Positions 2,774 through 27,935 of a DNA stretch of 32,000 bases are shown one piece after another; position 1 is the stretch's first letter; every line of letters starts with the position of its first letter. Position numbers and translations under genes: made by a program. The DNA comes from Staphylothermus hellenicus DSM 12710. GTDB lineage: Archaea > Thermoproteota > Thermoprotei_A > Sulfolobales > Desulfurococcaceae. The notes beneath the pieces are model-generated. The model was not told the DNA's origin and did no database searches. It worked only from the letters and a program-made list of their open reading frames with translations. The stretch spans positions 990,001 through 1,022,000 of the forward strand of contig NC_014205.1 of the NCBI RefSeq assembly GCF_000092465.1, in the 5' to 3' direction.

Positions 2774-2786
2774 TCTGGGATTATTT

Positions 2787-12834: not shown

Positions 12835-13387
12835 AATATATTTCTTTCAAAAACTCCTCATTTAGTAAAAGCATTCTCTTAATATCAGAGGTAGGCGTTA
12901 ATGTATAGAAAACACGTGTTCTTCCCACTACTATAATACTGGATCCTTTAGAAGACTTTATTTCTTTTCCGACAAGCACTAGCTTATTGCTTGTTTTCAA
13001 TACTATTTCCTCATATTTTGTAGAAAATATTTTATCTCTCAATTTCTCAACGAGTTTGTCAGCTACGTCTTTGAGTTTTCCTTTTCCACTTAATAATAAC
13101 TTCCTACCTAAACCCAGAATACCCTTTTTGACTATGATATCAACAAATCCAATATCCTCTAATTCTTCATCTAATTCTAGAACAGATATTGTTATATAAT
13201 AGAATTCGCCTGTATACTTGGTTGTATTTTTCCCTATGAAAAAATACTTCATATATGGATTATTTTTAAAACGAACTAGAGTTGCTCCTCCTTTATCATA
13301 TATTATTTCTGCTCCAGCTGGTAAGATTTTTTTAAGGGATTTCGATGTTTCACCGGTTAAGCTACTCATATAATTTATTCCCCACAC
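12818..13387 (-). CDS. Hypothetical cytoplasmic protein downstream of the surface GH57
   Basis: 189-codon ORF lying 7 nt after the GH57 stop on the same strand. The start is GTG, with an alternative ATG at 13369. No motif recognised. Confidence 0.4.
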   Translation of the reverse strand: MWGINYMSSLTGETSKSLKKILPAGAEIIYDKGGATLVRFKNNPYMKYFFIGKNTTKYTGEFYYITISVLELDEELEDIGFVDIIVKKGILGLGRKLLLSGKGKLKDVADKLVEKLRDKIFSTKYEEIVLKTSNKLVLVGKEIKSSKGSSIIVVGRTRVFYTLTPTSDIKRMLLLNEEFLKEIYSSLYQ

Positions 13388-13394
13388 CGTTATT

Positions 13395-15920
13395 TCATGA
13401 TCTCTTATGTTTAATATAGTATAGAGCCGCTAAAACAGCTACTATAATCCATAGAATAATCGCTAATATTATGAGCAACTGTGTATTTTCACCTGTATTT
13501 TCCTGCCTAGTTTGCGTTACTATTATTTGTCCAGTGAATTTGTTGTTGTCGATGAATGGATCATATGGTGACACAACATTGACTTCATATGTATAAGTTC
13601 CAGTCTTCAGATCTATGTTGAACACTTCTGTAACGCTATTTTCTCCCTTGAACATGGTGGCTTCTTTAATGTATGTTTGTCCTCCTATTTTCAAATATAT
13701 CTTAACGGGAACATCGAAGGATGCTGTTTCGCCTTCGGCTAGTGAAACAGTTGCAAATATTTTATGTGTGCCTGGAGGCGTAGGATTTATGCCTCCTAAT
13801 ACACCGTTCGGGCCTATAACTGATATTTTTAATGATAGATCAATTGGGCTAAGGAATTTTATTTTGAAATACCTTGTTTCAAGATAAAATGTTTCTTTAC
13901 CAATCTTTGCGTTTGGAGTGTACATTGTTAATACTAGTTGTTTTGTCCCGGCTTTATCCACTTTAAATATTAATGACACATTTACCGAGTCGCCCGGGGA
14001 TATTGTTACTTGTTTAGTTGTAGCATTTATTCCCGGCATACTTAGAGTTATTATGGTGTTCCTCATCTGGTAATCATTATTATTTGTAATTGTTACTATT
14101 GCCTTAGTCGTAGTCTGTGCAACTGGTTGGGATGGTTCCGTTGTAAGGGAAATCTTGTATTTCATAATGTTTGAAATGTCATGGTCAAATTCCTCGAGCC
14201 AAGCATCTATTACACCTGGTGAAAAGAATTCGCTCCACCAGAAATCGCTGTCGATTGCATGTATCAAGTCTATTACGGACTCATTGAATTTGGGGTTCTT
14301 TTTGATTTCATCTATGAATTTATTGTATGAATCTATGTTTTTATAATACATATATGCCTTATACTTCCCTATACGTTCATATAGTTTCTCCCATTCCTCC
14401 TTGTGTTTAGCTCCTTGTTCCGTTGTCCACTTACCCCATCCTCCAAGCCAGCTTGTCCATGTAATACTTGTTAATACTCTTTCCGGTGGATGCACTTTAA
14501 CAGCGTCACTGAATGTTCCAGTATTCATTATTCCCTGATCTGTTAATCTACTAACATACTTATAGATCCTGTCAAGGAATAATGCGCCGTTGGCATGGCT
14601 TGGAGCGAATAATATCCAGTTCTCTCCATCTGCAGCTATTACTTCAATTGGAGGATACTTATAGTTCTTAAATGAGTGCTTATTGTATATATGGTAATAG
14701 AGTGCTCTCGCGTCTCGATCAGCGGTTCTAGCGTCTCCCCAGTCATTATTTGTAAAACCAATATAGCCATCGCTCACCTCCTGATCACGGAAGAAGACAA
14801 TTAACTCTCTTCCCTCATTATCCTTGATAATGTATGGTTCAAATATTGTTCCCTTATCGCCTCGTGCACCGGGAAAGTGGTATGTGCCATCCAAAACCGT
14901 GTATTTGATCCCGAGATCTAAATATATAGGAACCAGTTTATCGCTCCAAGCCATTTCAGCAGTCCATATAGCATCAGTATCTACTCCTAAGACTTTCTTA
15001 GTCCATTCCTTACCTAACCATATATCATATTTGAGAAGATATGGTATATTCAATTTTTCCATTATATAGCCAGCTATTGTATGTGCGAACTCGGTTGTTA
15101 AAAGATATGCTCTGCCTTCATCGTGTAGCTGTTTTAATCCTTTGAAGAAGTCTTTGATTGCCTGGGCAAGCGAGCTGTTAGGCGGTATTTTTCTAGTGGA
15201 ACCAGTATTTGGATCATATATTGTGAACCCCTTATTTGCAGCGATATATAATTGGTATAAGAGGCTTGGACTATAGTGTAGGTTTACCTTGATATTGGGA
15301 TATTTCTTTAATAAATAATAGTGTAGGTAATATGTGCCCATATCAGGGTATGTGTTATCGATCTTGAAGTATGGTGTTAAACTATCTTTGAAAAAGTGAT
15401 CTATATGCCAGTTAGCGAAGAACGTTCCATCAGGCCAATAATTAGGTGCCTGATGATTATGCCAAACAAAAAGTATCATCGGCGGCTTACCTGATGGTGG
15501 TCCATGTCTGATCCAGAAATCAACTGTGTCTTCATATATGACTTGGTTATTCACTATTATCTGCATATGTAGATGATATGTTCCATCATTAACATCTGGA
15601 ACGGTAACTGGTTGTGATTCTACATGGATAAATCTTGCATCATTTGCTGACGGTATTGTTACATGTATTTCGGGAATAGTGGGAGCATTGGGTAGATCTG
15701 TAAAATAAAACTTGATTATTGCTTCTCTGCTTTCTTGAACAAGCGGATACACATATGCTTCCGCAACCATATGTGATCCTGGAAGATATATTGGGGAATC
15801 CGTTGTTACAAACGCATATATCTTATATGTCTGACTCATACCAGGTGATGCTGTGATTAATGAAATGATAATTATTGTGGTAAGCATAATCATAACAGCT
15901 TTATTCATGGCGACCCCCAT
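13395..15920 (-). CDS. Extracellular, membrane-anchored GH57 glycoside hydrolase (amylopullulanase-type)
   Basis: Signal peptide 'MNKAVMIMLTTIIIISLITASPGMSQ'. GH57 motifs are 'VWHNHQAPNY' (nt 15438-15467), 'AIWTAEMAWS', 'AADGENW' and 'HAIDSDFWWSEFF'. A beta-rich C-terminal region is followed by the TM anchor 'LLIILAIILWIIVAVLAALYYIKHKRS'. Confidence 0.85.
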   Translation of the reverse strand: MGVAMNKAVMIMLTTIIIISLITASPGMSQTYKIYAFVTTDSPIYLPGSHMVAEAYVYPLVQESREAIIKFYFTDLPNAPTIPEIHVTIPSANDARFIHVESQPVTVPDVNDGTYHLHMQIIVNNQVIYEDTVDFWIRHGPPSGKPPMILFVWHNHQAPNYWPDGTFFANWHIDHFFKDSLTPYFKIDNTYPDMGTYYLHYYLLKKYPNIKVNLHYSPSLLYQLYIAANKGFTIYDPNTGSTRKIPPNSSLAQAIKDFFKGLKQLHDEGRAYLLTTEFAHTIAGYIMEKLNIPYLLKYDIWLGKEWTKKVLGVDTDAIWTAEMAWSDKLVPIYLDLGIKYTVLDGTYHFPGARGDKGTIFEPYIIKDNEGRELIVFFRDQEVSDGYIGFTNNDWGDARTADRDARALYYHIYNKHSFKNYKYPPIEVIAADGENWILFAPSHANGALFLDRIYKYVSRLTDQGIMNTGTFSDAVKVHPPERVLTSITWTSWLGGWGKWTTEQGAKHKEEWEKLYERIGKYKAYMYYKNIDSYNKFIDEIKKNPKFNESVIDLIHAIDSDFWWSEFFSPGVIDAWLEEFDHDISNIMKYKISLTTEPSQPVAQTTTKAIVTITNNNDYQMRNTIITLSMPGINATTKQVTISPGDSVNVSLIFKVDKAGTKQLVLTMYTPNAKIGKETFYLETRYFKIKFLSPIDLSLKISVIGPNGVLGGINPTPPGTHKIFATVSLAEGETASFDVPVKIYLKIGGQTYIKEATMFKGENSVTEVFNIDLKTGTYTYEVNVVSPYDPFIDNNKFTGQIIVTQTRQENTGENTQLLIILAIILWIIVAVLAALYYIKHKRS

Positions 15921-16002
15921 ATGCTAAATATGATTTGATATTAATAAGGCTATATCTTGTATATAAGTTATTAAATTGCTTGTTTATAAAAACATGTATT
16001 AT

Positions 16003-17958
16003 CTAGTATACTAGTAGCCAGAGACTTTTCATGATTAATGCAACAGCAACCGATATAGCTATCATAAGTCCCTCTCCCAATCCTAGACCTGCTGATATTA
16101 CTGCAACGTATTCCTTAAACCACTCAGATCCTTTCTTTTTCTCCAATATCCTAGCGATAATGCCTCCGATAAACATTGTCATAGTATATGATATTGGCTG
16201 ACTAATACCTATAGTAAATCCTATGAGTTCGAATGGTATCGAGAAGATTTTAACCAACGCAACTATGACTGCTCCAACTATAAATGGTACCATTATTCGT
16301 GTAGGCCAGTTAGAGAAATGCGATAATAATGCAGATGCTACACTGCTCTCACCAGTTTTTAATGCACCACTAGCCCAAGCAGGCCATAACAATGCCCACA
16401 ACGCTGATACACGCCAGAAAACAGCTGATGCTGGATAAGCCGAGCTTGGAATAGGAGCTATTCTCCAAAATATATCTGCATATATTAGGCCCATCAAATA
16501 TGTTAGTGGAAACGCTATAAAGTATGCTTTCAAGTAATCGCTCTTCTTAGTATTTGTCCAATCACATGCAACATAGACTGCTGTCCATCCACTAGCTCCT
16601 CCATAAACATATATGGGTGTAAACCATGCTGCAACACCTCTATAACCACTCGCCAGTAAAGCTCCCTCCTTAACATATGGTAAGTTTATCCCAGTAGCTG
16701 CTTCACCTAAAGCACGAGTATTTGCCAGCTGGAACAACGTAGAGAAACCCACTATTAATGCCAGGAATATTAATAGAAATTGGATAGTAGCATATTGTGG
16801 CTCAACAATGTATACTAGATAATAAACGAACAAGCTTAATCCAGTAGCTGATAACAAATATATTAGGAGAGCAAATCTTGTAAGCGGCAAACCCCAAATA
16901 GTAGGCTCTGAAACCGTGCTTGCTTCTCTACCACGTATCTTTGGGGGTCTAAATACTCTAACAACGCTTCTCCAATTAATAACCATTGGCGCTAATCCTG
17001 CTGCAAAACTCAACCCTATTAATGGCCCCACATATAGTTGGAGCAACCCATACTGGAAAATATCTCCTAGATTCATTCCCGGCCTCCACAATGTAAATAA
17101 TCCATACTTGACAGCCATTGGAGCACCTATTAGATAAGCAAATATTCCTCCAATAAATATTGACACATTAACTTTCCAAGGCATAATCATACCTATACTT
17201 ATCAATAGTAGATCTAGGCTGAAACCCAGACTAGCACCATTCAATCCTATAGATTCCAGAGAAGATGTTAGATCAGCCCATGGAACAGGAAGTAGCTGAA
17301 CGCCAAACATGAACCAAACACCATATAGTAGGAAGGTGTAAAGTAAACTGAATACTGCAACACTAATCATTACCCTAGCCTTATCTCTCCAAATATGTTT
17401 TTCTGCAAGAACAATACTTGATTCAGCCCATATCCTAGCACCTGGGAACGGTAATTTTTCTTCTACAGCATATATCTTGTAGAGCACATATGCTAGACTA
17501 AGATCCATACCCTTGGTAAGTAGGGCAGATGCAATAGCTACAAGAAGAGGCGGGATGAAAACTGCTTGGAAAAGTGTTCTAGGCAGTTCAGGAATAGTGG
17601 GAGCATACCAGAACGGTATCTTACCATATAATCCGAAACTTCTAGCATATTCGCTTATAGCAATATACCATGCAAGTATAAGGTTCACCCCGAACAAGCT
17701 CTCAGAAATAGTTGTTCCAACATTACTAAACATTACAAATGCTTCTTGACGAGTAAGCCTAGCCCCCATTATTGCGGCTATAGTTGTAAACAACAACAAT
17801 GTAGTATATTCTGCAGAATTAATTATCTGCCAGGGATTAAGACCTGCAACCAAGTTAAGCCATATAGCTGCAGGCTCAAATACTAGTGCTCCATAAAGAA
17901 TAGCTAAAACAACACGCCATGTAACAGCTGATCCTCCATTGCTCGTGGATTCGGCCAA
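16003..17958 (-). CDS. Large polytopic membrane protein, putative transporter (distant OPT-superfamily-like), paralog A
   Basis: 651 aa, hydrophobic throughout with many TM segments. 'EEKLPFPGARIWAES' (nt 17419-17463) and C-terminal 'VISAGLGLGEGLMIAIS' resemble remembered OPT motifs (L.FPsGtA.AE; aSGLIaGeal). The TTG start is preceded by GGGAGG. Confidence 0.5.
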   Translation of the reverse strand: MAESTSNGGSAVTWRVVLAILYGALVFEPAAIWLNLVAGLNPWQIINSAEYTTLLLFTTIAAIMGARLTRQEAFVMFSNVGTTISESLFGVNLILAWYIAISEYARSFGLYGKIPFWYAPTIPELPRTLFQAVFIPPLLVAIASALLTKGMDLSLAYVLYKIYAVEEKLPFPGARIWAESSIVLAEKHIWRDKARVMISVAVFSLLYTFLLYGVWFMFGVQLLPVPWADLTSSLESIGLNGASLGFSLDLLLISIGMIMPWKVNVSIFIGGIFAYLIGAPMAVKYGLFTLWRPGMNLGDIFQYGLLQLYVGPLIGLSFAAGLAPMVINWRSVVRVFRPPKIRGREASTVSEPTIWGLPLTRFALLIYLLSATGLSLFVYYLVYIVEPQYATIQFLLIFLALIVGFSTLFQLANTRALGEAATGINLPYVKEGALLASGYRGVAAWFTPIYVYGGASGWTAVYVACDWTNTKKSDYLKAYFIAFPLTYLMGLIYADIFWRIAPIPSSAYPASAVFWRVSALWALLWPAWASGALKTGESSVASALLSHFSNWPTRIMVPFIVGAVIVALVKIFSIPFELIGFTIGISQPISYTMTMFIGGIIARILEKKKGSEWFKEYVAVISAGLGLGEGLMIAISVAVALIMKSLWLLVY

Positions 17959-18114
17959 TTAAGCCACAACCTCCCATATTTTGCGTTATTCAAATACCTC
18001 TGCCTAAAATAAATAGAATCTTTAAGACCCATATTTAAAATTAAGCAAGAACTAAAAATAATAGTTCGACATATTTTTCTTAGACAAGTAAAAAATTATT
18101 TATAATTTGTTAAG

Positions 18115-20145
18115 TTATGTTCCCAATACATATGATAACCATATCATTATATAGCTGAATATTGCTAATCCAGCCATGAACGGCACTATCTTCTCCTCGT
18201 ATCCCTCTACACCTGTAACCCTTATAATGATCCATTTAGAAATCAATGCTATAATGTTTGGTATAAACATTAGTAGTCCGGTAACAGGCATATCACCTAT
18301 CAATATACCTATTGGATTAAACGGTACACCTGGGAACAAGAGCCTTACCCACACCAGTAATATTCCAAGTATTATTCCAACAACAAACTGCGGCATGAAG
18401 AGCGTTGGATCATTACTCATGTGTTGTATATAGTTTTGATGAACCATGCTATCGATCCAGTTTGGCTCAAACCCTGTATCTGCTCCACCAACCCATTTAC
18501 CACCTACAGAGCCGAACCATCCATAATAGTATAGTCCTAGTAGAGTTATTAGGAATGATAATATTATACCGGAGATCACTGCTATGAAAGATATTTTAAC
18601 CACCTTGTTAGGATTGACACCTCCAACCTTAGCTAGTTTGAACCCCTCCATAACTGCTGGGCCAGGAGTTGTAGCTAATGCACGATCATTGACTAATGGG
18701 TAAAATGATGCTGCAGCTGCAAATGCTTCTTTCGAGTGCCAGTTACCGCTATACCTGTATGGCAGCCATGGCAGTACTAGCATTTCATGCCACCAAGGAC
18801 CATAGTTATAGATTGCTGTGGTCCATGTTGATTCTCCACGTATACGCATCCATGTAATATATAATAGTAGAGTCACTACTACGACGAGCAATGCTATATG
18901 GGGTTCTACGCCTGTTCCGGCCAGTAATCCCCATGCTAGTAAGAAACCTATTATTGCAAAGATTGTTCCAAACCATACTTCTTTATCACTTCTCAAATTC
19001 TTGAGATGCCTCCAGGCTAGTGCAAACCATGCTATGGGGAAACCTATTGCTAAACCCCTTGTCACCATATGAGGCATTAAACCATACCAGTGGCCGATTG
19101 TGAAATAGTTTGTGTGTGCATCCTGTGTTTCCGTAAGGGGTACTATACCTAAGGATACCTCGATTGGCGGCAACACTATATACATGAGGAAATACCATAC
19201 AACAGCTGTAATCAATATATCCATTGGCATCAGAAATGCTAAACCAATGAATAATGGTGCAACAGTAATCATTAATGCTATATCATATCCTATTGATGGA
19301 GAAAGATCGTAGCCTCCATACTGGGATACGAGTAATTGACCATAGATTGACGGCAGGTCCTGTATTATCTTTAATGAAGCCAACAGGTTGGGCAGTAGCA
19401 TAACTACTGCAACAACAGCTCCTACTAAGAACATTATCTTCGAGATAAACCTATGCTCAGAAGCCCCCTTGAACCCTGTTATTCTCATAACTTCAACAGC
19501 CATTTGTGCGTATGGGAATGGTAACATTTCCTCCTCTATCCATGGCTTACGAAACATTAACGCAATACCTATTTGAGCCATTGCTAAACCGAAAAAGACA
19601 AGTATCCACAGCGTCAGCGATGGTGCCCACGCACTTAATACTATGCCTACCCAGTTAGGATCAGATAATAGCATTGAACGAGCTGATTCATTAAATATTG
19701 GTGCTAATGCAGGTATTTCTTGGCCATTAACAATGATCGTGCCCTTAGGAACCCATAGATCAGGCATTAATGCTCCATTATCAGTTATTGATGGAACCTG
19801 ATAAGTCATATAGGCATAATGGACCAGTAGGAAATTCGCTGAGAAAGCATAACCAGCACTCGCAGCAATAGCTATATAGATCAAAACTGCATCAGCAACA
19901 GTTAAAGCAAGTCTTTTACTGATCAATGCAACTATTAAATTGAGAACACCTATTACCAGTAATAATATAAGCGCTGCCCATGCCCATACCCATTCGAGAA
20001 AAGTGCTCGGCCACGCTAATCCATATAGTAAGTTCGTTATAATCGGAGCTAGAATAGCCATTATTATAGCTACAACAACTCCTTTAATGGTGACGCTAGC
20101 AGGTGAAACACCCCATAATAGTTTCTTTCCCTCTTCAACTGACAT
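18115..20145 (-). CDS. Large polytopic membrane protein, putative transporter, paralog B of 16003..17958
   Basis: 676 aa with many TM segments. It shares 'EEEMLPFPYAQMAVE' (nt 19492-19536) and a C-terminal 'PF.PIG..IG..P....MFI..IIA' block with paralog A. GGTGG precedes the ATG. Confidence 0.5.
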   Translation of the reverse strand: MSVEEGKKLLWGVSPASVTIKGVVVAIIMAILAPIITNLLYGLAWPSTFLEWVWAWAALILLLVIGVLNLIVALISKRLALTVADAVLIYIAIAASAGYAFSANFLLVHYAYMTYQVPSITDNGALMPDLWVPKGTIIVNGQEIPALAPIFNESARSMLLSDPNWVGIVLSAWAPSLTLWILVFFGLAMAQIGIALMFRKPWIEEEMLPFPYAQMAVEVMRITGFKGASEHRFISKIMFLVGAVVAVVMLLPNLLASLKIIQDLPSIYGQLLVSQYGGYDLSPSIGYDIALMITVAPLFIGLAFLMPMDILITAVVWYFLMYIVLPPIEVSLGIVPLTETQDAHTNYFTIGHWYGLMPHMVTRGLAIGFPIAWFALAWRHLKNLRSDKEVWFGTIFAIIGFLLAWGLLAGTGVEPHIALLVVVVTLLLYITWMRIRGESTWTTAIYNYGPWWHEMLVLPWLPYRYSGNWHSKEAFAAAASFYPLVNDRALATTPGPAVMEGFKLAKVGGVNPNKVVKISFIAVISGIILSFLITLLGLYYYGWFGSVGGKWVGGADTGFEPNWIDSMVHQNYIQHMSNDPTLFMPQFVVGIILGILLVWVRLLFPGVPFNPIGILIGDMPVTGLLMFIPNIIALISKWIIIRVTGVEGYEEKIVPFMAGLAIFSYIMIWLSYVLGT

Positions 20146-20249
20146 ATAATTCCACCGGAAACCATATTGATTTATACGGTAAAAATCTACATTAATATTT
20201 TATTATGTCAAGAATTAAAAATTTATTCATATAGTTAAATGTAAATGTT

Positions 20250-23200
20250 TTAAACCTTAATTATTGATTCAGCTTTTGCAATGTATTGTTTTTTCTCGTC
20301 AAGAGTAATGGTTCTCCATAATAGTAATTGTTTACGGAGAGCATCTATGAAGAACTTGTTTGACCTTATCCATAATCTCGTATTGCCTGATAATCTCTTC
20401 AGATAAATACTGATCTCCCACTCATTCGGATTAACTTCTAAAGCTCTAATCTGGAACTCTTGTTTTACACCTGCATGCCATGGCTTAAGCCTAACAACCC
20501 CTCCTAATACTACAACGTTTTTACCATTCATTGTTGTTTTACCAATGCTTATCTTCTCAATTACAAAATTACCTATATCTGGACTCGTGAACCCGCTGAT
20601 GTATTCGTATACATAATATAGTGAGCCAATCAGCTCCTTATAACTCGTGATCTTGAAAGGCATAGGTATAACCCATTCATCTCCTTTAGGCTTTGTTGGA
20701 AACTCCCATTTTCTACGGAGACTTGGCAATGCCATCTTGCTTGCCTTGAATACAGGATATATAGTAGCCGCTAAGACAGAAATAAATGTGGCAGCAATAG
20801 CTAATACAACGTATTCGCTGCTATAGTTTGGCCTGAATATTTCAGGCATAAATGTTGCAGCTGATGTAGTTATTAGTATTCCTGTAACATAGCCTACTAC
20901 AGTAGCTATTAGAGCATATGCTAGTGCCTCCGCTATGAACATTAAACCTATCTGGCTAGGCGATAATCCTAGTGCGGCATAGATGAATATTTCCCTTTTC
21001 CTCTCATATATGCTTCCGAGAAGAACACCAAGAATAGAAACGCTAGCAATTATGATTGGTGCAACAACATAGTTGAAGCCGGCTCCACTTAATGCAATCA
21101 TTTTACTATACTTGGCTACTCCATGGCTAGGCGAGTATGCATATGTATCTGTTGATGGTAGGATAAATACTATATCTCTACCTAGAATAAATGGATCAAT
21201 CCCTGTCTTAATAGATATTTGAGCTAAATAAAAGCTTAAACCTTTATTCAACCATGGATTGATCTCAGCTATTTTAGCTGGAATAAATATTGTTCTAACA
21301 GTTCTAGCTCGTGGAAACCCAATTACAGGGGTAATTGTTTGTCCATCAAGCTCTCTTATCTCAAGGATTCTTCTATCATCATATGCTCCTATGATTCTAA
21401 ACCTTACTCCTGCGATGACAATTGTTTTATTAACATCGATAACTCCATTAGTATCATTTATTGCTGTAGCCGGTATTATAGCAACGTATTGATCTGAACT
21501 ATTAAACCACCTACCCTTAACAATAATCTTTGAAATATTACTGATTACATCTTCCTCGGGCTCTACTGCCGTTATAGAATTTATCGGGTAATACTTCGAT
21601 GGATCATCATAGAGGAATAGATAAGTTGAACCAACTGCCCAATACCTTACAACAGCGTCTTTGCCAATGATAACTTTAACTAGATCATATAATTGACTAC
21701 CCATTGGTAAATTCCTATCTATCGTTTCCCTCTGCAATAAGAAGCCCTGAGGCCTTATAGGTTCAAAGCCTGATAGAGCAACTGGTTTAGGAGCTACATA
21801 GCTCGTCATACTCGTGAATAAAACAACACTAATAACAACCACAATTAAAGTTATTATTGTCAATAATGTTCTCAGTCTTCTCTTCTTCATATATTCAACG
21901 CCATAGCTGAAAGACATATAACCAGCTACAAGCTTGCTTCTCTCAACCTCATGGACACCGACTATTTTCCTCCTTATTTCCTTCAATGCCTTATTGAAAT
22001 CACCTAGGAGAACTAGGAGCGCTGGTATCACTAGGATTATCATTATGAAGCCAATAATAGTCATTATAGCATTAGCTGTTAAATGGAGAGCGGGATGTAT
22101 GAAATAGAATATTATGCCTGGAATAGCTGTTACTACTAGTGTTTTCCCAATTACACTAAATGGGCTAGAGCCTGGCTTTCTAAAGTAGAGCCCCATAATA
22201 AATGCGAACAATACTAGTAATACTGAGAACAGTGTAGCAGTGTTTTCTACATCTAGGTAAGCGGATTTAGTTAATTGGTAACCATTATATGCTAAAGTTA
22301 AACCTTCAAGAGTATAGGCTCTATATGCTGTGTAATTATATGTGGAGAGGGATTTTGTTGCATTAGATAATGCTGTTGCCCCTCTAGTAACAAATTCCTC
22401 TGCAGCCGGATTTCTTATTTTATAACTAGATAGCTTCTCCAATCTCCTATCAACGATATTTATTGTAGAGCTTAATGCATCGTACAAGCTATATTTATGG
22501 CCGATCCTAACATTTTCAATAACATAAAATACCGGGTCAGGGCCGAATACTAGGCTATAGTTAAGATCCTTGTATAGATAAGCTACAAGGAACCCTGTTT
22601 CGTCTATTCCTATATAGTAATAGTCCGGCTCAGCCATTGTATCCGTTCTTACAATTCTACATCCAATACTTCCACCCTCAATAGGGATCTGATAAGATAA
22701 CGGATCCACAACCATGTTTACAGTAATGTTTCCCTTAAACTTAATAATCCATACCTCCCACGGTGCTTGCTTTGATCCAAGTACTGGTTGTGAAATAGAG
22801 ACAGAGGAACCCCTGGATACGGTTCCCATAACGTTTAATGCTACTACGTTGCCATTGTCCGAGAGAACAAGCGCTGTTATTGTTAAGCCTGTTGATCGCG
22901 ATGTAGGTAATCCTTCAACAGTAAAATATCCCTCATCATCAGTAAACCTTACTATCCTTAAATTCCAAGGACTACTTGTCTGAGTCCTTGATCCAGCACT
23001 AATAATGACTAGTGCTCTGCTAAGATTTGCTTTTTTGAGATTAACTCGTTGTCCAAGCTTCGGATTCCAAACCATGACTTGCCCAATTAAATTAGCAAAC
23101 ATCTCATTTCGAGGACTTGTACTAATACGTGTTGGCGCATTTGGAGAGAACCCTGCTGAAATAGCGTCTCTTAGTTGTTGCGGATTCTTGCTATATATTT

Positions 23201-24680
23201 GATCCAATATTATATCGAGTAAGTTATACTGCAATACTATATTTTCCGAATTGATCTTATCGAAATAATCAATTGGCGTCCCCTTTGCACCTTTTTCGGC
23301 GAAAGCTGATTTAAGAGTAAATGCTGCTAGTCCCGAACTCCAAAACGGCTCTGTATCAAGCCAGTATGGGCCGGGGAACAATGCCCACCATGTATTAGGA
23401 TCGCGTGAATACGAGAATAATTGTCTAATAGCAGATCCTAGATCTTTTCCTAATTTATTCGAAACGCTTTGTTCAAGCCTGTTCAGATCAAAAACATTTG
23501 ATATAAAGCCAGCATAATAGTTTATTGGGCCACGTGTTATTCCTACTGCTTGTGCTGTGTAGAAATACCCTATACTAGTTGGAGCTATATATTTGGATCT
23601 ATAATTTAGATCTAATCCTATAAACAGTGTTTTTGCAGGATTTATAACTATTGATATGTTTCCAAAAGATAGTTTTTGTTTATTAAAAATATATTTATCC
23701 ACAAAATGTCTCTGCCCCTCTAAACCCTCATAATACCCGGAGAACCACACTATTATAGTATCGTATTGAGGGGTCTTATTCACTAGTTTCTCAGCATACA
23801 TTAACAAGTATATTGGTGCTAAAGCATCTGTTGCTCCAGGAGCGAACCCTACTACCGGGGACCATGAATCATAATGAGCCCCCAACACGATCCTGTAATC
23901 ATGGTTTTGTCCTGGAACATATGCAACAATATTTGAAACATTAACTTCTACCCATTTCGATCTCAGCTCTAAATATCCCCTCTTACCATTGAGATCGCTA
24001 AGTGTTAAACCATATTCTTCTTTCAACATTCGAGTAGATATATAGCCTATAGGAAGATCAACTGGGGTGTCAAGGTATTTATCATAATTCTGGCTATTCA
24101 CAATATTATCTTCATAGAATAAGATCGCTTTTACTCCTAGATGTGGATCGAGAAGCCATAACCAGCGCCAATCATTTGAGTAGCTTATCAATACTATGCT
24201 TCCATGAAGATCTACGCCGTTAAGATCATTGATGGAATCTGCAACGATAATTTTGCCTTTACAAATAGCATTAACCGGAACACCTCCACTAGGCCATATC
24301 GGGTAAACTTTAATAGTTCTATTATCAACTTTTAGATAACTACCCTCATCAACCGGGATAACAACTGTATAGTTATCAAGAACAACATTTACAGTTATGT
24401 TTTTAATTAAATTGTATAGAATCCTTGTAGCTTCGAAGTATCCTCTATGCCCTGTTAATCTATCATGTATGCCTGCAAATAGGTTAAGATAATGGTTAAG
24501 CTTAGCACTTGTATTTGTCGCTGTTAAATTAATATTTATATTTTTATTAAAAACATCAAAAACAGGATCGTTTAAAAAATTATTATTACTACTCACCGAA
24601 TATGCTCCAGTATAATTTATGGATGCGAAAAGGGAAACAATGATTAAGAAAAACAAATAGATGAATATTGTTTTTTTCAT
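20250..24680 (-). CDS. Giant surface/membrane fusion protein: PA + M28-like ectodomain, TM bundle, MacB/FtsX-type permease module, C-terminal cytoplasmic domain
   Basis: Signal peptide at aa 1-25. PA-like region around aa 125-225 ('KGKIIVADS', 'GSIVLISY', 'VKAILFYED'). M28-like motifs at aa 266-456 ('LGAHYDS', 'GATDALAP', 'YYEGLEG', 'LDTEPFWSSGLAAFTL'). 'RIVRFTDDEGYFTVEGLP' is CarboxypepD_reg-like. Three TMs at aa 815-893. 'MKKRRLRTLLTIITLIVVVISVVLF' plus a 240-aa loop plus 'GSIYERKREIFIYAALGLSPSQIGLMFIAEALAYALIATVVGYVTG' give a MacB-type 4-TM FtsX module (aa 931-1316). A 160-aa tail follows. The ORF is uninterrupted. Confidence 0.8.
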   Translation of the reverse strand: MKKTIFIYLFFLIIVSLFASINYTGAYSVSSNNNFLNDPVFDVFNKNININLTATNTSAKLNHYLNLFAGIHDRLTGHRGYFEATRILYNLIKNITVNVVLDNYTVVIPVDEGSYLKVDNRTIKVYPIWPSGGVPVNAICKGKIIVADSINDLNGVDLHGSIVLISYSNDWRWLWLLDPHLGVKAILFYEDNIVNSQNYDKYLDTPVDLPIGYISTRMLKEEYGLTLSDLNGKRGYLELRSKWVEVNVSNIVAYVPGQNHDYRIVLGAHYDSWSPVVGFAPGATDALAPIYLLMYAEKLVNKTPQYDTIIVWFSGYYEGLEGQRHFVDKYIFNKQKLSFGNISIVINPAKTLFIGLDLNYRSKYIAPTSIGYFYTAQAVGITRGPINYYAGFISNVFDLNRLEQSVSNKLGKDLGSAIRQLFSYSRDPNTWWALFPGPYWLDTEPFWSSGLAAFTLKSAFAEKGAKGTPIDYFDKINSENIVLQYNLLDIILDQIYSKNPQQLRDAISAGFSPNAPTRISTSPRNEMFANLIGQVMVWNPKLGQRVNLKKANLSRALVIISAGSRTQTSSPWNLRIVRFTDDEGYFTVEGLPTSRSTGLTITALVLSDNGNVVALNVMGTVSRGSSVSISQPVLGSKQAPWEVWIIKFKGNITVNMVVDPLSYQIPIEGGSIGCRIVRTDTMAEPDYYYIGIDETGFLVAYLYKDLNYSLVFGPDPVFYVIENVRIGHKYSLYDALSSTINIVDRRLEKLSSYKIRNPAAEEFVTRGATALSNATKSLSTYNYTAYRAYTLEGLTLAYNGYQLTKSAYLDVENTATLFSVLLVLFAFIMGLYFRKPGSSPFSVIGKTLVVTAIPGIIFYFIHPALHLTANAIMTIIGFIMIILVIPALLVLLGDFNKALKEIRRKIVGVHEVERSKLVAGYMSFSYGVEYMKKRRLRTLLTIITLIVVVISVVLFTSMTSYVAPKPVALSGFEPIRPQGFLLQRETIDRNLPMGSQLYDLVKVIIGKDAVVRYWAVGSTYLFLYDDPSKYYPINSITAVEPEEDVISNISKIIVKGRWFNSSDQYVAIIPATAINDTNGVIDVNKTIVIAGVRFRIIGAYDDRRILEIRELDGQTITPVIGFPRARTVRTIFIPAKIAEINPWLNKGLSFYLAQISIKTGIDPFILGRDIVFILPSTDTYAYSPSHGVAKYSKMIALSGAGFNYVVAPIIIASVSILGVLLGSIYERKREIFIYAALGLSPSQIGLMFIAEALAYALIATVVGYVTGILITTSAATFMPEIFRPNYSSEYVVLAIAATFISVLAATIYPVFKASKMALPSLRRKWEFPTKPKGDEWVIPMPFKITSYKELIGSLYYVYEYISGFTSPDIGNFVIEKISIGKTTMNGKNVVVLGGVVRLKPWHAGVKQEFQIRALEVNPNEWEISIYLKRLSGNTRLWIRSNKFFIDALRKQLLLWRTITLDEKKQYIAKAESIIKV

Positions 24681-24794
24681 CCTTGTTTCACCGAGAAATA
24701 CTCTATCTTGATAAAGACTTTTTAAATATTGACATATCTATTTCCCATATCGTTTTATAAAAAATGACGATTGTGTTTAAATGATTTCAATGAA

Positions 24795-26621
24795 TCATTT
24801 TTTCTTCTTTAATAGTAGAGCTATTATAATAATGAGTACTAGCGCTGCAATTACTATAGTCCAAACCAATAATCCTCCTCCACCACCTGTTATTCCTCCT
24901 GTTGAATATACTACTTTTAATTCGTGCACGCCCGGTTGATCCAGTGCAAATGTTGCTTGTGCTTCATCGCCTACTATAGTATACTGTAGCTCAGCATCAT
25001 CGATCATTATTTTGCTTAATGTATAAACTCCCGCCTTTAAAGGTACTTGTATAACGTATGTTTCTGGCACTCTAAAACCGGGTCTAGGAGGCGAGACAGA
25101 TTGATCTAGTGCTGTGATGTTTCTAGATGCTGGAGCCGAGGAGCCCTTGAATAATAGTTCTCCAGCCGAGCCAAGTAGTGTAAAGTTTATAGTTTCAGCT
25201 TGTTGAGGTAGATATGAGCCGTCAGGCGTTACAAATAAGATGACTAGCTTAGCTAATGGCTTAATCCTGAACTTTAAAGTAATCGTATCGCCTTCCTTCA
25301 ATGTAGCATTTACTTTTGATCCTGTGACTTCTGTTCCATTAGGTAGTATCCAACTTGTGAATACAAATTCTCCGTAGCCATCCCTTGTAATTCCTGTTTG
25401 TGGAGAGATTTCTAGAATATATGGTGCATTACTGTATGGTATTTTAACCGTGAACTCGTTGCTTTCAATCTCTGTTTGAACATATGGTGTTCCAGAATAA
25501 TAGTCATAAATAGATATCGCTGCCTTAGGCACGCCAGTGCCTCCTTCGGTAGCTATTTTAATATTAATAGGGTATTTAAGCTCTACAGCAACAACCCTGC
25601 ACGGTATTTTGGGGGAGAAAGCTGGGTTATAGAAGAAGGTCTTATATTGTTGTTCCGTAAAACCTGCTTCTCTAACTAAGTATTCGCGGTGGAGGGGACC
25701 AGCATAGATTTTCATATGGTATTCTTCGCTTTCGCCAGGGTTTAGTGTTAATGGTTTAAACTCTACACGTATAATGGTATTCTGTGCACCTCCAGCACTG
25801 GTTTCAAACCATACATAGCTTGTTTTTGAAACTGTTTCATCATCCGTCATGAATAATGCGATCATAAAGCCCCATGGTGATGGATCGGTTGTGTTATCAT
25901 AGATTCCAATACCCTTCAATGTGCCATTAACCTTTACCGGTCCTCCTGGAGCTCCTCCCCAGCTTGATCCCTGATAATAGGACTCTATTTTACCATCATT
26001 GAACAACATAAACTGGTATTCATCCTGCTTACTACCCATCAACGATACTAGCTCGATCATTGGGCCTGAAGAGCGTCCCCAAGGTTCTGAAAGATCAATT
26101 GTTACAGGGTTCGTTCCAGTATTGGTTAGTGTCATGTTGAAGTCCACAATAAATGATTCATTATATACACGATATGTTTTAATCACTTTTAACCCTGGAA
26201 ATGGCGTGTTTTCGTCTAGAGTATATGTGATCTGTATAGTTGTATAATTTTGTGTTTCCTCTAACACTTCATACGAAGCTTTAGCGTAAACAGCATGTCC
26301 TTCCCATGGATTGTTATCAGATATAATATCCCACATTAATGCATGAATAGTTGATTCTTTCCCAGCCAATCCACCCCTATCAGCAGCCATGCCTTTTTTA
26401 GCTACGGGGGTGTTTTTGAAATCACTACATACTGGTTGAATATTTTGTATTGCTCCACCATGTTCTAGGTCCCAAGTAATTTTCAGATAGGACTCAGTCA
26501 CTGTAACAGTATTGTCTGTCTCTGTCACAGCGGATAAGGCAGGTGTTGATGCAGAGAATAAACTAGCGATTACTACTCCTATTAAGAAGCTTAATAGAAA
26601 TCTATCAAGCAATTTCATCAA
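24795..26621 (-). CDS. Secreted, C-terminally anchored beta-rich surface protein of unknown function
   Basis: Signal-like 'FLLSFLIGVVIASLFSASTPALSA', Gly-rich linker 'GGITGGGGG', and TM plus basic tail 'LLVWTIVIAALVLIIIIALLLKKKK'. The likely start is the ATG at 26618, preceded by GGTGG. Confidence 0.6.
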   Translation of the reverse strand: MMKLLDRFLLSFLIGVVIASLFSASTPALSAVTETDNTVTVTESYLKITWDLEHGGAIQNIQPVCSDFKNTPVAKKGMAADRGGLAGKESTIHALMWDIISDNNPWEGHAVYAKASYEVLEETQNYTTIQITYTLDENTPFPGLKVIKTYRVYNESFIVDFNMTLTNTGTNPVTIDLSEPWGRSSGPMIELVSLMGSKQDEYQFMLFNDGKIESYYQGSSWGGAPGGPVKVNGTLKGIGIYDNTTDPSPWGFMIALFMTDDETVSKTSYVWFETSAGGAQNTIIRVEFKPLTLNPGESEEYHMKIYAGPLHREYLVREAGFTEQQYKTFFYNPAFSPKIPCRVVAVELKYPINIKIATEGGTGVPKAAISIYDYYSGTPYVQTEIESNEFTVKIPYSNAPYILEISPQTGITRDGYGEFVFTSWILPNGTEVTGSKVNATLKEGDTITLKFRIKPLAKLVILFVTPDGSYLPQQAETINFTLLGSAGELLFKGSSAPASRNITALDQSVSPPRPGFRVPETYVIQVPLKAGVYTLSKIMIDDAELQYTIVGDEAQATFALDQPGVHELKVVYSTGGITGGGGGLLVWTIVIAALVLIIIIALLLKKKK

Positions 26622-26731
26622 ATACCACCATATTTAATGGTTTATCATATTTAATAGTTTATTAAAAAGAATATTAAAAACTATTTCATTATAGCATTAT
26701 CTAAAAATCGTTTCTCGCAGAATTGATACGT

Positions 26732-27097
26732 TTATATCAAGAATTTAAGTCTATGCATTAATACTAAGACTCCTGCGAAACGGGCTTTTAAACCATTCAT
26801 AATATTATCTCTAGGCGGATCAAGAAAATATCCTTTGTAAAGGCCTGATAAATTAGTAATGTAGAAAGCTTGAAGAACAAATAAGGTTAGTGCAACTAGT
26901 TTCCAGGGTTTATTCTTTATTATTTGAATTATATCGTTGGTTACGTGATCAATTCTATTTATAAGCTCTTCATATACATCTATTCCCTCATCAATCATTG
27001 CAATGAATAAATCGTTTAAATCAATACCGTATTCTCTCAATAGATCATGTAGAGCTGTCTCAATCGGTATTGTTAAGTATTTTTCACCATTCAACAC
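26732..27097 (-). CDS. Hypothetical small protein with one TM segment
   Basis: 121-codon ORF overlapping the end of the upstream gene by 14 nt, with a GTG/TTG start. It has one hydrophobic helix 'WKLVALTLFVLQAFYI'. Confidence 0.4.
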   Translation of the reverse strand: MLNGEKYLTIPIETALHDLLREYGIDLNDLFIAMIDEGIDVYEELINRIDHVTNDIIQIIKNKPWKLVALTLFVLQAFYITNLSGLYKGYFLDPPRDNIMNGLKARFAGVLVLMHRLKFLI

Positions 27098-27935
27098 AAT
27101 AAGTACCCTTCACAATGTCTATTGCTTCATCAAGTCTTTTACGGGGTGCTTTAACCAGTGTATATTGTATATAGTCGGGTTTAACACATTTATTTATCTT
27201 CTTCAGTAAGACTCCATATTTAATCCTCTTCAATAAGGCATGTGCTATGTAATATTCTTCATAAGAATTCTTGCTAATGAGAACTAACTTTGTAAATCTA
27301 GGAATAAGGTATCTCAGATGCTTCTTGAAAATATCGTCTTCGCTTACCTCTTGAGATTCAATAACGTATCTGGCTATAGAATACTGTATTACATGCACTT
27401 TCTTATCTCTACTCATAAAATAAGCCATACTATAACCTATTTTGAAATCTCTAAGATTAACAAAGTAATCCTCATATAGTCTCAACCCTATACCCATTAG
27501 TCTCCAATTAACCATTCCATTATGGATTGGATGACAATTTATATTGCCTAGAATACTCATAAATGATCCCATAGATGCTGATACGCCATCTAATTGGACT
27601 ATAAATAATCGTCTTGTCTCGTCGCAAAACCATGACGCAGTAAATACTTTGTTGTTTTCATCTCTCAAAAAATATCCTAATACTTTATGTTTATGTAGCG
27701 TTGTCGAGAAACTACTTTTTCTAGTAAATCCTTTTTTCTCGAGTTTTCCAAGGTATTTCTCATAGGCTTTAGGGAAATCGCTTGGCTTACTATGTCTCCA
27801 ATATATTTCGAGTTTTGCACCGGTTTCAGGCGCAGCTACTAGGACTCCATTAATACTTGTTCCGCCCTCTCTAGTTATTTCCCATCCACTCGGTAGTTTT
27901 ACTTCGACCTTGTTCCAAGAAATTAGTTTATCCAA
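27084..27935 (-). CDS. Hypothetical protein (no recognised domain)
   Basis: 283-codon ORF. The TTG start is preceded by GGTG 8 nt upstream. It follows the PqqD-like gene on the same strand. Confidence 0.5.
   Translation of the reverse strand: MDKLISWNKVEVKLPSGWEITREGGTSINGVLVAAPETGAKLEIYWRHSKPSDFPKAYEKYLGKLEKKGFTRKSSFSTTLHKHKVLGYFLRDENNKVFTASWFCDETRRLFIVQLDGVSASMGSFMSILGNINCHPIHNGMVNWRLMGIGLRLYEDYFVNLRDFKIGYSMAYFMSRDKKVHVIQYSIARYVIESQEVSEDDIFKKHLRYLIPRFTKLVLISKNSYEEYYIAHALLKRIKYGVLLKKINKCVKPDYIQYTLVKAPRKRLDEAIDIVKGTYCVEW

Follow-up and report, generated by a model that had tools for sequence, protein, structure and literature searches.

Gene Content and Extent of the Locus

Our analyses of a 32,000-nucleotide stretch of Staphylothermus hellenicus DSM 12710 DNA (hereafter, the window) revealed five successive ORFs on the minus strand (13395–15920, 16003–17958, 18115–20145, 20250–24680, and 24795–26621), which encode a surface-anchored GH57 protein, two OPT-fold permeases (A and B), a giant FtsX protein, and an anchored surface protein of 608 residues. 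Window proteins are 89 to 95% identical to Staphylothermus marinus Smar_1397–1399, and permease A is the ortholog of Smar_1400. An initial annotation had described the same five minus-strand genes, and the ORF coordinates and Pfam matches bear it out. The extent that it gave to the locus, 13395–26621, proved too narrow, however, as it overlooked a small FtsX gene and two LolD/MacB-type ATPase genes (10770–12834, plus strand, convergent) as well as a PqqD-like gene (27949–28332), all of which accompany the locus in relatives.

Enzyme genes lie at both ends. The first encodes a cytoplasmic GH57 amylopullulanase-cyclodextrinase (8264–10183, minus strand) that matches PDB 7E1Y (E = 0 over 2–639) and has no predicted TM segment or signal peptide. 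It is the ortholog of S. marinus SMApu, whose activity is cited in PMC6037648, and is probably the consumer of imported dextrins. At the other end, Pfam identified a cytoplasmic GH57 of the α-amylase/4-α-glucanotransferase type (29997–31946, minus strand) and a glycogen synthase (28329–29978, minus strand), which head a tight gene run into the PqqD-like gene, with an 18-bp gap followed by a 4-bp overlap of the glycogen synthase stop with the PqqD-like start. A conserved 189-residue ORF (12818–13387, minus strand) follows the anchored GH57 gene at a distance of 7 bp, and ORFs of 121 (26732–27097, minus strand) and 283 residues (27084–27935, minus strand) separate the 608-residue protein gene from the PqqD-like gene. 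None of these ORFs matched a Pfam or NCBIfam family; the 121- and 283-residue genes, for which no homolog was detected in the distant loci, are lineage specific.

A Pfam scan of the 23 larger ORFs in the window found no solute-binding protein or MalF/G-type permease, in agreement with the earlier statement that the 32 kb hold no MalE/F/G/K-type importer. Every gene of the locus is preceded by an AT-rich promoter-like region of its own and followed by T-tracts, and a search for an operator shared across the locus genes found none; thus, co-transcription and co-regulation of the locus are unproven. We see about an even chance that the five genes form the central part of a conserved α-glucan acquisition cluster of ∼24 kb (8264–31946), arranged around a composite envelope machine.

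Surface Proteins of the Locus

The anchored GH57 (841 residues; 13395–15920, minus strand; Pfam GH57, E = 9e-25) consists of a signal peptide, a GH57 catalytic domain, a β-rich C-terminal region, and one C-terminal TM segment with the tail KHKRS, the predicted TM segments spanning residues 8 to 26 and 815 to 833. It matches PDB 7E1Y with an E value of 4.8e-76 and is a paralog of the characterized SMApu. Its catalytic Glu/Asp pair is intact: in an alignment of five GH57 proteins that includes it, the HxHQ motif, the nucleophile E322 (WTAEMAW), and the acid/base D431 (DGENW) are invariant.

The 608-residue protein (24795–26621, minus strand), which gave a weak Pfam YidC-periplasmic-like match, has a signal peptide, a β-supersandwich (residues ∼30 to 330), Ig-like stalk domains, and a C-terminal TM segment with the tail KKKK. 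When its AF2 model (pLDDT 87.8) was searched with Foldseek, YidC P1, GH36 N-domains, and mutarotases were matched at 1e-11 to 1e-8, along with pilus-adhesin-like structures. The modeled N-domain thus resembles the galactose-mutarotase/YidC-P1-like β-supersandwich, a sugar-enzyme type, and the protein is a candidate glucan binder. In a distant locus, L010, the anchored GH57 carries at its N terminus a fused domain homologous to this N-domain (2e-9; also detected by Pfam). The secretion architecture initially ascribed to three proteins of the locus therefore fits the GH57 and the 608-residue protein but not the giant, which has seven more TM segments.

Two Divergent OPT-Fold Permeases

Permease A (651 residues; 16003–17958, minus strand) is polytopic and matches Pfam OPT above the gathering score (E = 5e-10; 39 bits, cut-off 25.8), while reaching only 28 bits against TIGR00728 (cut-off 128). 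A phmmer search with permease A among 1.84 billion representatives returned only 448 clusters, nearly all of 610 to 660 residues, and apparently did not retrieve the canonical, abundant OPTs. Full-length homologs adjoin the giant in L013, L014, L016, L017, and L018 (1e-33 to 1e-55), and also in L021. Permease A belongs to a family that is small and distinct and occurs alongside the giant FtsX in both archaeal and bacterial loci.

Permease B (676 residues; 18115–20145, minus strand; Pfam DUF6785, E = 1.6e-29) is a collinear homolog of permease A (BLASTP, 2e-7; hhalign, E = 8e-5 over 500 columns with a probability of 61%) and is its distant paralog. The sole significant PDB match of its AF2 model (pLDDT 82.5, pTM 0.88) is the OPT/YSL transporter YS1 from barley (7wst; E = 1e-8, TM 0.61–0.68). 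On the strength of the collinearity and the YS1 match, the original designation of both proteins as OPT-like stands. The two permeases share the polytopic fold of the OPT/YSL family (TC 2.A.67) but differ from its known members in the marked divergence of permease A, in being paired, always beside the giant and often beside ABC ATPases, and in having carbohydrate enzymes, rather than peptide or metal genes, as their context.

The Giant FtsX Protein and Its Putative Partners

The giant (1476 residues; 20250–24680, minus strand; Pfam M28, MacB_PCD, and FtsX) begins with a signal peptide, after which comes an ectodomain of ∼790 residues, its PA/M28-like part followed by a β-rich and helical region. 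Its membrane half contains three TM segments, a MacB-type FtsX module (TM1, an outside core domain, and TM2–4), and a cytoplasmic tail of ∼165 residues that is conserved in the family alignment. The only PDB relatives found were MacB, LolC, LolF, and YtrF. The M28 catalytic Glu has been lost: the EE motif reads Y318-E319 in the giant and Y/W followed by E/I/M/Q across the family, the neighboring ligand Glu thus being variable as well. The PA/M28 head therefore looks receptor-like and catalytically dead. To judge from sequence motifs, it shares with the transferrin receptor and glutamate carboxypeptidase II an M28-like fold, an inserted PA domain, and extracellular display. The transferrin receptor, too, is no longer catalytic and serves as a binding receptor; unlike both proteins, the giant joins its M28-like domain to an FtsX permease of the ABC type.

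The small FtsX permease (188 residues; 10770–11336, plus strand; Pfam FtsX, E = 1e-15, with a match to the C-terminal part of MacB/LolC) has four TM segments and no outside domain, and probably pairs with the one FtsX module of the giant. ATPase 1 (257 residues; 11333–12106, plus strand; Pfam ABC_tran) is of the LolD/MacB/FtsE type, its best NCBIfam models being LolD, MacB, DarD, YbbA, DevA, and FtsE. It has no MalK-like regulatory domain at its C terminus and is 51 to 60% identical to the ATPases of the Sumerlaeota module described below. ATPase 2 (242 residues; 12106–12834, plus strand) is its paralog, also of the LolD/MacB type. The PqqD-like protein (127 residues; 27949–28332, minus strand; Pfam PqqD, E = 5.5e-8) is probably a cytoplasmic accessory subunit of the module. 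Its homologs occur in three loci. In L014, a PqqD-like gene separates the two ATPase genes; in L018, another neighbors the gene for the small FtsX; and on the P0037 contig, the domain is joined to the giant at its N terminus.

These proteins share with type VII ABC systems (MacB, LolCDE, FtsEX, and BceAB) the four-TM FtsX module, whose outside domain sits between TM1 and TM2, together with LolD/MacB-type ATPases encoded as separate proteins; a pair of dissimilar FtsX proteins would recall LolC/LolE. They depart from such systems in the giant's large ectodomain with its dead PA/M28 head, its three extra TM segments, and its conserved cytoplasmic tail; in a partner FtsX without ectodomain; in the presence of two distinct ATPases and of a PqqD-like subunit; and in the linkage to OPT-fold permeases and catabolic loci. 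To our knowledge, none of these features has been described for the known systems.

Conservation of the Locus and of Its Core

Comparison across Desulfurococcales and Thermoproteota showed that the order 608-residue protein, giant, DUF6785, OPT-like permease is kept in every genome locus long enough to show it (8/8), down to 30 to 37% identity in L010. After the block in L010 come genes for an anchored GH57, another GH57 of the PSMA-like type, and a TrmB sugar regulator. In L003, L004, L008, and L023, the block is followed by the anchored GH57, the ABC/FtsX genes, with the small FtsX in its place, and the SMApu ortholog at the cluster end. The 189-residue gene is kept in L003, L004, and L008, its position being taken by a 174-residue gene in L023. 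The 121- and 283-residue genes, as well as the upstream GH57 and glycogen synthase genes, are kept in L005, L007, L008, and L023. No anchored GH57 follows the permease in L005 and L006, where Trk genes are found instead (in L006, by ORF layout).

The core of giant, DUF6785, and OPT-like permease recurs in Bathyarchaeia (L013), in other Thermoproteota (L016 and L017), and in bacteria. In L013, L016, and L017, it has no glycosidase neighbors, those in L016 and L017 being housekeeping genes, and L011 contains the giant alone. Genes for the small FtsX and two ATPases adjoin the core in three bacterial loci (Sumerlaeota L014, the P0037 contig, and L021), and small FtsX homologs were detected in the bacterial loci L014 and L018. 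L014 is a tight co-directional run of a sugar-type regulator, a GH130, seven module genes, a GH43, and a malectin protein, with no other transporter in the locus. Signal peptides are present in its GH43 and malectin proteins and absent from its GH130 and GH172. GH78 and GH29 genes flank the core on the P0037 contig, and a carbohydrate esterase, an FGGY kinase, and a mannitol-dehydrogenase-like gene neighbor it in L021. Neither a binding-protein importer near the bacterial cores, in the stretches examined, nor metal-related genes near the core were seen.

A Putative Composite Machine for Glucan Uptake

As the gene set recurs from archaea to bacteria and lies, in several lineages, within loci for the breakdown of sugar polymers, the two OPT-fold permeases, giant and small FtsX proteins, two ABC ATPases, and PqqD-like protein probably constitute a machine for the uptake of oligosaccharides of a type not yet described; we found no literature on this OPT-plus-FtsX module. 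The reading that we favor, with a probability of about 0.5, is that the locus captures, cleaves, and imports α-glucan by way of this composite transporter, its substrate, direction, and physical coupling being inferred. On the outside of the cell, the anchored GH57 would cleave starch, pullulan, or glycogen, and the chains or products would be held by the 608-residue protein and the head of the giant. ATP hydrolysis by the two ATPases would act on the outside domains by way of the FtsX helices, as happens in MacB, LolCDE, and FtsEX, and this step would deliver oligosaccharides to, or gate their entry through, a heterodimer of the two permeases. Inside, the SMApu-type and 4-α-glucanotransferase-type GH57s would process the dextrins and glycogen synthase would store the glucose. 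If so, the same core would serve other glycans in other phyla.

This scheme follows the logic of the archaeal and bacterial maltodextrin or cyclodextrin systems with importers of the MalEFGK/CymEFGD type, which likewise join an extracellular α-glucan enzyme and uptake to cytoplasmic dextrin- or cyclodextrin-degrading enzymes and glycogen synthesis, but here the OPT/FtsX module takes the transporter position and the 32 kb lack a solute-binding protein, MalF/G-type permeases, and a MalK-type ATPase. Polysaccharide utilization loci (Sus-like or Gram-positive ABC) similarly co-encode a surface binder, a surface glycosidase, an importer, cytoplasmic enzymes, and sometimes a sugar regulator; the importer here is of another type, without SusC/D or a binding-protein ABC system, and the archaeal surface proteins are tethered by C-terminal TM anchors.

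Glucan uptake is favored by the synteny, the glycan-locus contexts, the OPT/YSL fold of DUF6785, the LolD/MacB-type ATPases, the mutarotase-like fold of the 608-residue protein and its fusion to GH57 in L010, the intact GH57 catalytic residues, the loss of the M28 catalytic Glu, and the overlap of the PqqD-like and glycogen synthase genes. It is weakened by the cores without glycosidases, the solitary giant of L011, the lack of an anchored GH57 in L005 and L006, the separate promoter-like regions without a shared operator, and the small number of independent contexts, only about ten. We also know of no OPT-family member that carries sugars, the known substrates being peptides, glutathione, and metal chelates, and of no type VII ABC importer, known systems serving to export, extract, or activate. 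Further points against it come from S. marinus, a described peptide fermenter whose genome encodes four carbohydrate ABC importers at other sites (PMC2678158).

The module could instead act outward, in the manner of FtsEX, LolCDE, or MacB, using ATP to place, release, or activate surface proteins, the anchored glycosidases among them, or to export a product, with the OPT-fold proteins in a non-import or accessory role. Characterized FtsX-type ABC systems are all outward acting or mechanotransmitting, which accords with the PDB relatives of the giant, the type of the ATPases, and the anchored surface proteins encoded alongside, and the activation of hydrolases by FtsEX provides a precedent (PMC6355983). 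We nevertheless regard an outward role as doubtful, as the OPT/YSL fold belongs to uptake carriers, an activator alone hardly explains two dedicated permeases per system, and no transport candidate other than the module was seen in L014 and L021 beside the cytoplasmic sugar-catabolic enzymes, which need imported substrate.

The initial annotation had raised the possibility of two unrelated functions that are merely adjacent. The giant, whose head resembles an aminopeptidase, and the permeases would then capture and take up peptides, the GH57s and glycogen synthase forming a separate glucan set. OPT substrates are peptides and chelates, Smar_1400 was annotated as a peptide transporter (PMC2678158), the organism ferments peptides, and the giant has an M28 fold with a PA domain; the cores free of glycosidases and the Trk genes of L005 and L006 fit as well. 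Mere adjacency is nonetheless disfavored by the synteny, with GH57 adjacency persisting to 30 to 37% identity and TrmB nearby, by the Tyr/Trp in place of the M28 catalytic Glu beside a nonconserved ligand position, and by bacterial copies within glycan operons with sugar regulators, cytoplasmic GH130, a kinase, and the like. The GH57 fusion in L010 and the operonic arrangement of the PqqD-like and glycogen synthase genes also argue against it, and we consider a separate peptide system unlikely.

That the core works as a general system for the envelope or for nutrients, with a non-glycan substrate such as metal chelates or cell-envelope fragments, its glycosidase neighbors reflecting genome packing in a few lineages, would suit the closest solved fold, a metal-phytosiderophore carrier, the housekeeping neighbors in L016 and L017, and the few contexts sampled, but is improbable given the absence of metal-related genes near the core and the fact that at least four independent lineages place it among different carbohydrate enzymes, one of them in a tight operon with a sugar regulator.

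The Five-Gene Locus Lies within a Larger Cluster

The locus at 13395–26621 had been delimited in the initial annotation as five consecutive minus-strand genes, and ORF listing combined with family scans upheld both the genes and their family assignments. Specifically, the minus strand encodes a 608-aa protein (24795–26621), a 1476-aa giant FtsX protein (20250–24680), a DUF6785 protein, here called permease B (18115–20145), an OPT-like protein, here called permease A (16003–17958), and an anchored GH57 (13395–15920). Upstream on the same strand, the same listing and scans placed a GH57 of the alpha-amylase/4-alpha-glucanotransferase type (29997–31946), a glycogen synthase (28329–29978), and a PqqD-like protein (27949–28332), followed by two listed ORFs without family assignment (27084–27935 and 26732–27097). 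The limits originally drawn missed what lies directly downstream: beyond a 189-aa minus-strand gene without family assignment (12818–13387), the scans identified two LolD/MacB-type ABC ATPases (11333–12106 and 12106–12834) and a small FtsX (10770–11336), all convergent on the plus strand. A further minus-strand ORF without family assignment (10199–10600) and a third GH57 (8264–10183, minus strand) follow. The genes are not spurious ORFs, as their orthologs are kept down to 30% identity. As the initial annotation had stated, there is no binding-protein importer in the window; none of the 23 larger ORFs scanned encodes a solute-binding protein, a pair of MalF/G-type permeases, or a MalK-type ATPase.

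Close counterparts are encoded in Staphylothermus marinus F1, with 95% identity between the DUF6785 protein and Smar_1399, 90% between the giant and an FtsX-like giant, and 89% between the 608-aa protein and Smar_1397. The window thus stems from a close relative, and identical copies are present in two sequencing runs. In the S. marinus numbering, the glycogen synthase corresponds to Smar_1393, and Smar_1400 is listed as an "OPT peptide transporter" (PMC2678158).

Two Divergent OPT-Like Permeases

Permease A scored 39.1 against 25.8 with the Pfam OPT model, chiefly over its C-terminus, and 28 with TIGR00728, below the cut-off of 128 for that model, while permease B matched only DUF6785 among sequence models. 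The two proteins are homologous and collinear over their whole length. An AlphaFold2 (AF2) model of permease B (pLDDT 82.5, pTM 0.88) had a single significant structural match, the barley OPT/YSL transporter YS1 (Foldseek E 1e-8, probability 1.00, TM 0.61–0.68). From its collinear homology to permease B, we infer that permease A also adopts the OPT fold. Thus, the description of both proteins as OPT-like permeases holds, with wide divergence from canonical OPTs in each case. When 1.84 billion representative sequences were searched with permease A, only 448 clusters were recovered, nearly all of 610 to 660 aa, and a sequence search of the PDB with the OPT-like profile gave no match. Genomic context points to sugars, rather than peptides or metal chelates, as the substrate class of the permeases. 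The bacterial DUF6785 proteins found in related loci (L014, L018, L021, and the P0037 contig) are longer, at 701 to 974 aa, and carry an additional C-terminal DUF6784, which is absent or weakly present in the archaeal proteins of 660 to 690 aa.

The Giant FtsX Protein and Its Putative Partners

Hydropathy and family matches indicate that the giant consists of a signal peptide, a PA/M28-like head and further ectodomain extending to about residue 812, three transmembrane helices (TMs) with a cytoplasmic loop, and then a MacB-type FtsX module. In this module, the first TM (938–956) is separated from the second by an outside core domain, with the remaining TMs at 1194–1308; the protein ends in a family-wide conserved cytoplasmic tail of ~165 residues. 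The FtsX match scored 46.9 bits, and MacB_PCD scored 24.1, slightly below its cut-off of 27, with MacB_PCD on record for orthologs. The initial annotation had ascribed one secretion plan to three of the five proteins; the anchored GH57 and the 608-aa protein do share a signal peptide, an ectodomain, and a single C-terminal TM, but the giant is a multi-TM protein. Homologs of the giant reach the Thermoprotei, Bathyarchaeia, and bacteria.

The M28 match of 37.9 bits covers only profile positions 1 to 91 of 193. The domain retains H269/D271 and an acidic residue at 286, but the Glu-Glu motif that carries the catalytic base in M28 enzymes, as placed by alignment to a solved M28-type chain, is Y318-E319. 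In 19 homologs, Y or W occupies the first of these two positions, with E, I, M, or Q at the next. An active aminopeptidase head was therefore rejected, as the catalytic Glu is absent; judged on the defining residues of the M28 family, the predicted head is not a peptidase.

The two LolD/MacB/FtsE-class ATPases (242–257 aa) adjoin the small FtsX, and this adjacency is kept in relatives. In bacterial loci they fall inside the same gene run as the permeases and giant, and those of the Sumerlaeota locus (L014) are 51–60% identical to the window ATPases. The window pair (11333–12834, plus strand) are tandem paralogs that cross-match at 62–71% identity. With one FtsX module in the giant and a second in the small FtsX, a heterodimeric FtsX pair is suggested, by analogy with LolC/LolE.

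The PqqD-like protein passes the PqqD domain threshold (33.5 bits vs. 23.4), with every NCBIfam equivalog model below its cut-off. No radical SAM, lasso peptide, or PQQ genes were found in the window or related loci, and a RiPP system around PqqD was rejected in view of the missing maturase and precursor genes. The giant P0037, of 1902 aa and encoded on a metagenome contig (JGI 3300072015), has a PqqD domain fused at its N-terminus (residues 44–102), which physically links PqqD to the giant.

Predicted Surface and Cytoplasmic Glucan-Active Proteins

The anchored GH57, with its signal peptide and single C-terminal TM, scores 88 bits in the Pfam GH57 model, whose cut-off is 21.2. GH57 enzymes are defined by conserved regions that include a catalytic nucleophile Glu and a proton donor Asp (PMC6037648). 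In an alignment with SMApu, the characterised amylopullulanase-cyclodextrinase of S. marinus, and with a 4-alpha-glucanotransferase-type GH57, the HxHQ motif, nucleophile E322, and proton donor D431 are invariant. The anchored GH57 matches SMApu (PDB 7E1Y) with E = 4.8e-76 and is an SMApu paralog, which homology predicts to be an alpha-glucan hydrolase; the true SMApu ortholog is the cytoplasmic protein encoded at 8264–10183 (7E1Y, E = 0).

The AF2 model of the 608-aa protein (pLDDT 87.8) has an N-terminal beta-supersandwich of the galactose-mutarotase/YidC-P1/GH36-N-domain kind, followed by Ig-like stalk domains and the TM anchor. This modeled fold is a binding fold of the type seen in sugar enzymes and makes the protein a candidate binder. 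In the more distant locus L010, the N-terminus of the anchored GH57 is itself a mutarotase/YidC-P1-like supersandwich domain corresponding to the separate 608-aa protein of Staphylothermus (BLASTP 2e-9). This L010 enzyme (13942–16863 of that locus) has 973 aa and a C-terminus that matches DUF6049.

About 45–60 nt upstream of the 608-aa gene start codon (window ~26660–26675) stands a conserved AAATAGTTTTTAATA, found also in loci L005 and L007. It is probably a BRE/TATA promoter, which would give the 608-aa gene a separate transcription start. A survey of intergenic regions in the window and in seven orthologous loci revealed no shared operator; it detected only AT-rich TATA-like elements, GGTG ribosome-site-like motifs, T5–6 tracts after stop codons, and, in three loci, AAATAGTTTTTAATA. 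Recurrent ATATGG was dismissed as a special element since it occurs all over the window.

Gene Order Is Conserved among Relatives

A genome scan with the DUF6785 alignment identified eight loci in Desulfurococcales and one other Thermoproteota MAG, and loci were compared by tblastn with all window proteins. In this synteny check, which the initial annotation had proposed, the order 608-aa protein, giant, DUF6785, OPT-like was kept wherever the contig allows. Three loci (L003, L004, and L008) continue with the anchored GH57, the 189-aa gene, the two ATPases (one in L008, at 17141–17866), the small FtsX, the gene without family, and the SMApu-type GH57, and three (L005, L007, and L008) have the upstream run of GH57, glycogen synthase, PqqD, and two genes without family. 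L023, at ~48% identity, has the 15 genes in the same order, glycogen synthase through SMApu-type GH57. At 30–37% identity, L010 retains the four-gene block, followed by the anchored GH57, another GH57 that is PSMA-like and cytoplasmic, and a TrmB sugar regulator. In L005, Trk genes take the place of the GH57 after the block, and L006 has the same ORF layout; the anchored GH57 is thus a frequent but not an obligatory neighbor. For the 189-aa gene and the two upstream genes of 283 and 121 aa, the distant loci yielded no homologs.

The Module Recurs beside Diverse Carbohydrate Enzymes

Beyond this lineage, the DUF6785 protein, OPT-like permease, and giant occur together in Bathyarchaeia (L013) and, among housekeeping genes, in two Thermoproteota loci (L016 and L017, in the order DUF6785, giant, OPT-like). 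L018 encodes a DUF6785+DUF6784 protein, a 297-aa protein, PqqD, FtsX, giant, and OPT-like permease. In Sumerlaeota (L014), a tight co-directional run comprises a GntR/LacI-type regulator, GH130, DUF6785+DUF6784, giant, OPT-like, FtsX, ATPase, PqqD, ATPase, GH43, and a malectin protein, with a GH172 upstream. The P0037 contig carries a GH78 and, farther along, ATPase, FtsX, ATPase, the PqqD-fused giant, an OPT-like-sized 669-aa protein, DUF6785+DUF6784, GH29, and GH78. A metagenome scan with two bacterial OPT-like members, with poor N-terminal patterns, yielded four loci, of which the high-GC contig L021 was examined; it encodes DUF6785+DUF6784, FtsX, ATPase, M28-FtsX giant, OPT-like, ATPase, a mannitol-dehydrogenase-like protein, a carbohydrate esterase, and an FGGY kinase. 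The OPT-like proteins of L013, L014, L016, L017, and L018 are full-length homologs of the window OPT-like permease (1e-33 to 1e-55). The giant stands alone in one archaeal genome of 1.55 Mb (L011, 10001–16662), where it has 1581 aa, a weak PA-domain match, and no nearby permeases; two genes (339 and 296 aa) come after it, and a GH127 lies ~6 kb downstream.

The recurring unit thus has up to seven genes. Its three large membrane proteins (the two permeases and the giant) form an invariable core, which the small FtsX, both ATPases, and PqqD directly adjoin in some loci; in the Staphylothermus lineage they lie no more than ~15 kb away. In at least four lineages, the unit has carbohydrate enzymes of various families as neighbors. 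In L014, the GH43 and malectin protein have signal peptides and the GH130 and GH172 do not, so that the operon encodes enzymes outside and inside the cell and a sugar-type regulator, with the module as its only transport candidate. In both L014 and L021 the module adjoins cytoplasmic sugar-catabolic enzymes, with no other transporter in the stretches examined. A gene position of this kind is normally held by an importer.

A Candidate Glycan Uptake Machine

The window surroundings comprise a complete alpha-glucan route: the surface GH57, the 608-aa surface protein, cytoplasmic SMApu-type and glucanotransferase-type GH57s, and glycogen synthase. Together with the importer-like position of the module in L014 and L021, this route favors capture, cleavage, and import of alpha-glucan oligosaccharides, to which we assign a probability of about 50%. 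The capture-cleave-import scheme of the initial annotation is thereby favored for these substrates, with a machine larger than it envisaged that includes the ATPases. In such a machine, the permeases would carry the sugars, ATP-driven FtsX movement would help import, and the parts of the module would form one complex, as gene linkage suggests. A broader proposal, which we hold at somewhat less than even odds, is that an OPT-fold heterodimer coupled to a type VII ABC mechanotransducer (giant, small FtsX, and two ATPases) and a PqqD-like adaptor constitutes an undescribed class of glycan uptake machine in archaea and bacteria, which in polysaccharide loci stands in for SusC/D or for ABC importers with binding proteins.

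An outward-acting, FtsEX/Lol-like machine serving the surface enzymes would agree with all known type VII systems, but it accounts neither for the pairing of uptake-type permeases nor for the importer that L014 and L021 require, and we consider it unlikely. That a peptide system lies beside a separate glucan set is quite unlikely in view of the inactive M28 site, the synteny with GH57 and TrmB genes down to distant relatives, the GH57 domain fusion, and the bacterial glycan operons, despite the OPT precedent, the fermentation of peptides by the organism, and the existence of glycosidase-free contexts. That the substrate is not a glycan, an option kept alive by the only about ten contexts seen, appears improbable.

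If the broader proposal is correct, the module would include the first OPT-fold carrier for oligosaccharides, widening the substrate range of this fold, and would be the first FtsX-type ABC system in nutrient import, giving type VII ABC proteins an import role. It would add a route of polymer-sugar uptake to binding-protein ABC importers, TonB-dependent SusC/D, MFS/GPH carriers, and PTS, assign a function to DUF6785/DUF6784 and to a 448-cluster family spread over both domains, and allow the metabolism of uncultured Thermoproteota, Bathyarchaeia, and Sumerlaeota to be predicted better. The locus also bears on how hyperthermophilic archaea use the GH57 enzymes that are under study for starch processing. 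Sugar uptake as such can be explained without it, as S. marinus has four carbohydrate ABC importers elsewhere in its genome (PMC2678158). A full-text search, with most subscription journals outside its reach, returned no match for DUF6785, DUF6784, PF20581, or PF20580, no relevant paper on OPT with FtsX, no match for FtsX, PqqD, and glycoside hydrolase combined, and mention of Smar_1400 only in the 2009 genome paper. The parts of the module come from known superfamilies, but we are aware of no published system that combines them in this way; an earlier description may exist beyond the literature covered.

Other Genes in the Window

tRNA and Rfam scans of the window gave no matches. A 247-aa protein without family match (7378–8121, minus strand) has a signal peptide, an ectodomain, and a C-terminal TM like the anchored GH57 and 608-aa protein, and is possibly the third of the cluster's surface proteins. 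A 165-aa protein encoded a little beyond the SMApu-type GH57 (6789–7286, minus strand) has an N-terminal winged-helix DNA-binding domain of LexA/TrmB/Lrs14-like type, and its hydrophobic segments at ~96–141 suggest a membrane-tethered regulator. Unrelated to the locus are a DUF123-domain protein at the window edge (633–1088, minus strand; 6e-25) and a MoxR-VWA pair (1628–4118, plus strand), in which a MoxR-type AAA ATPase (bpMoxR, 5.7e-66) precedes a VWA-domain protein.
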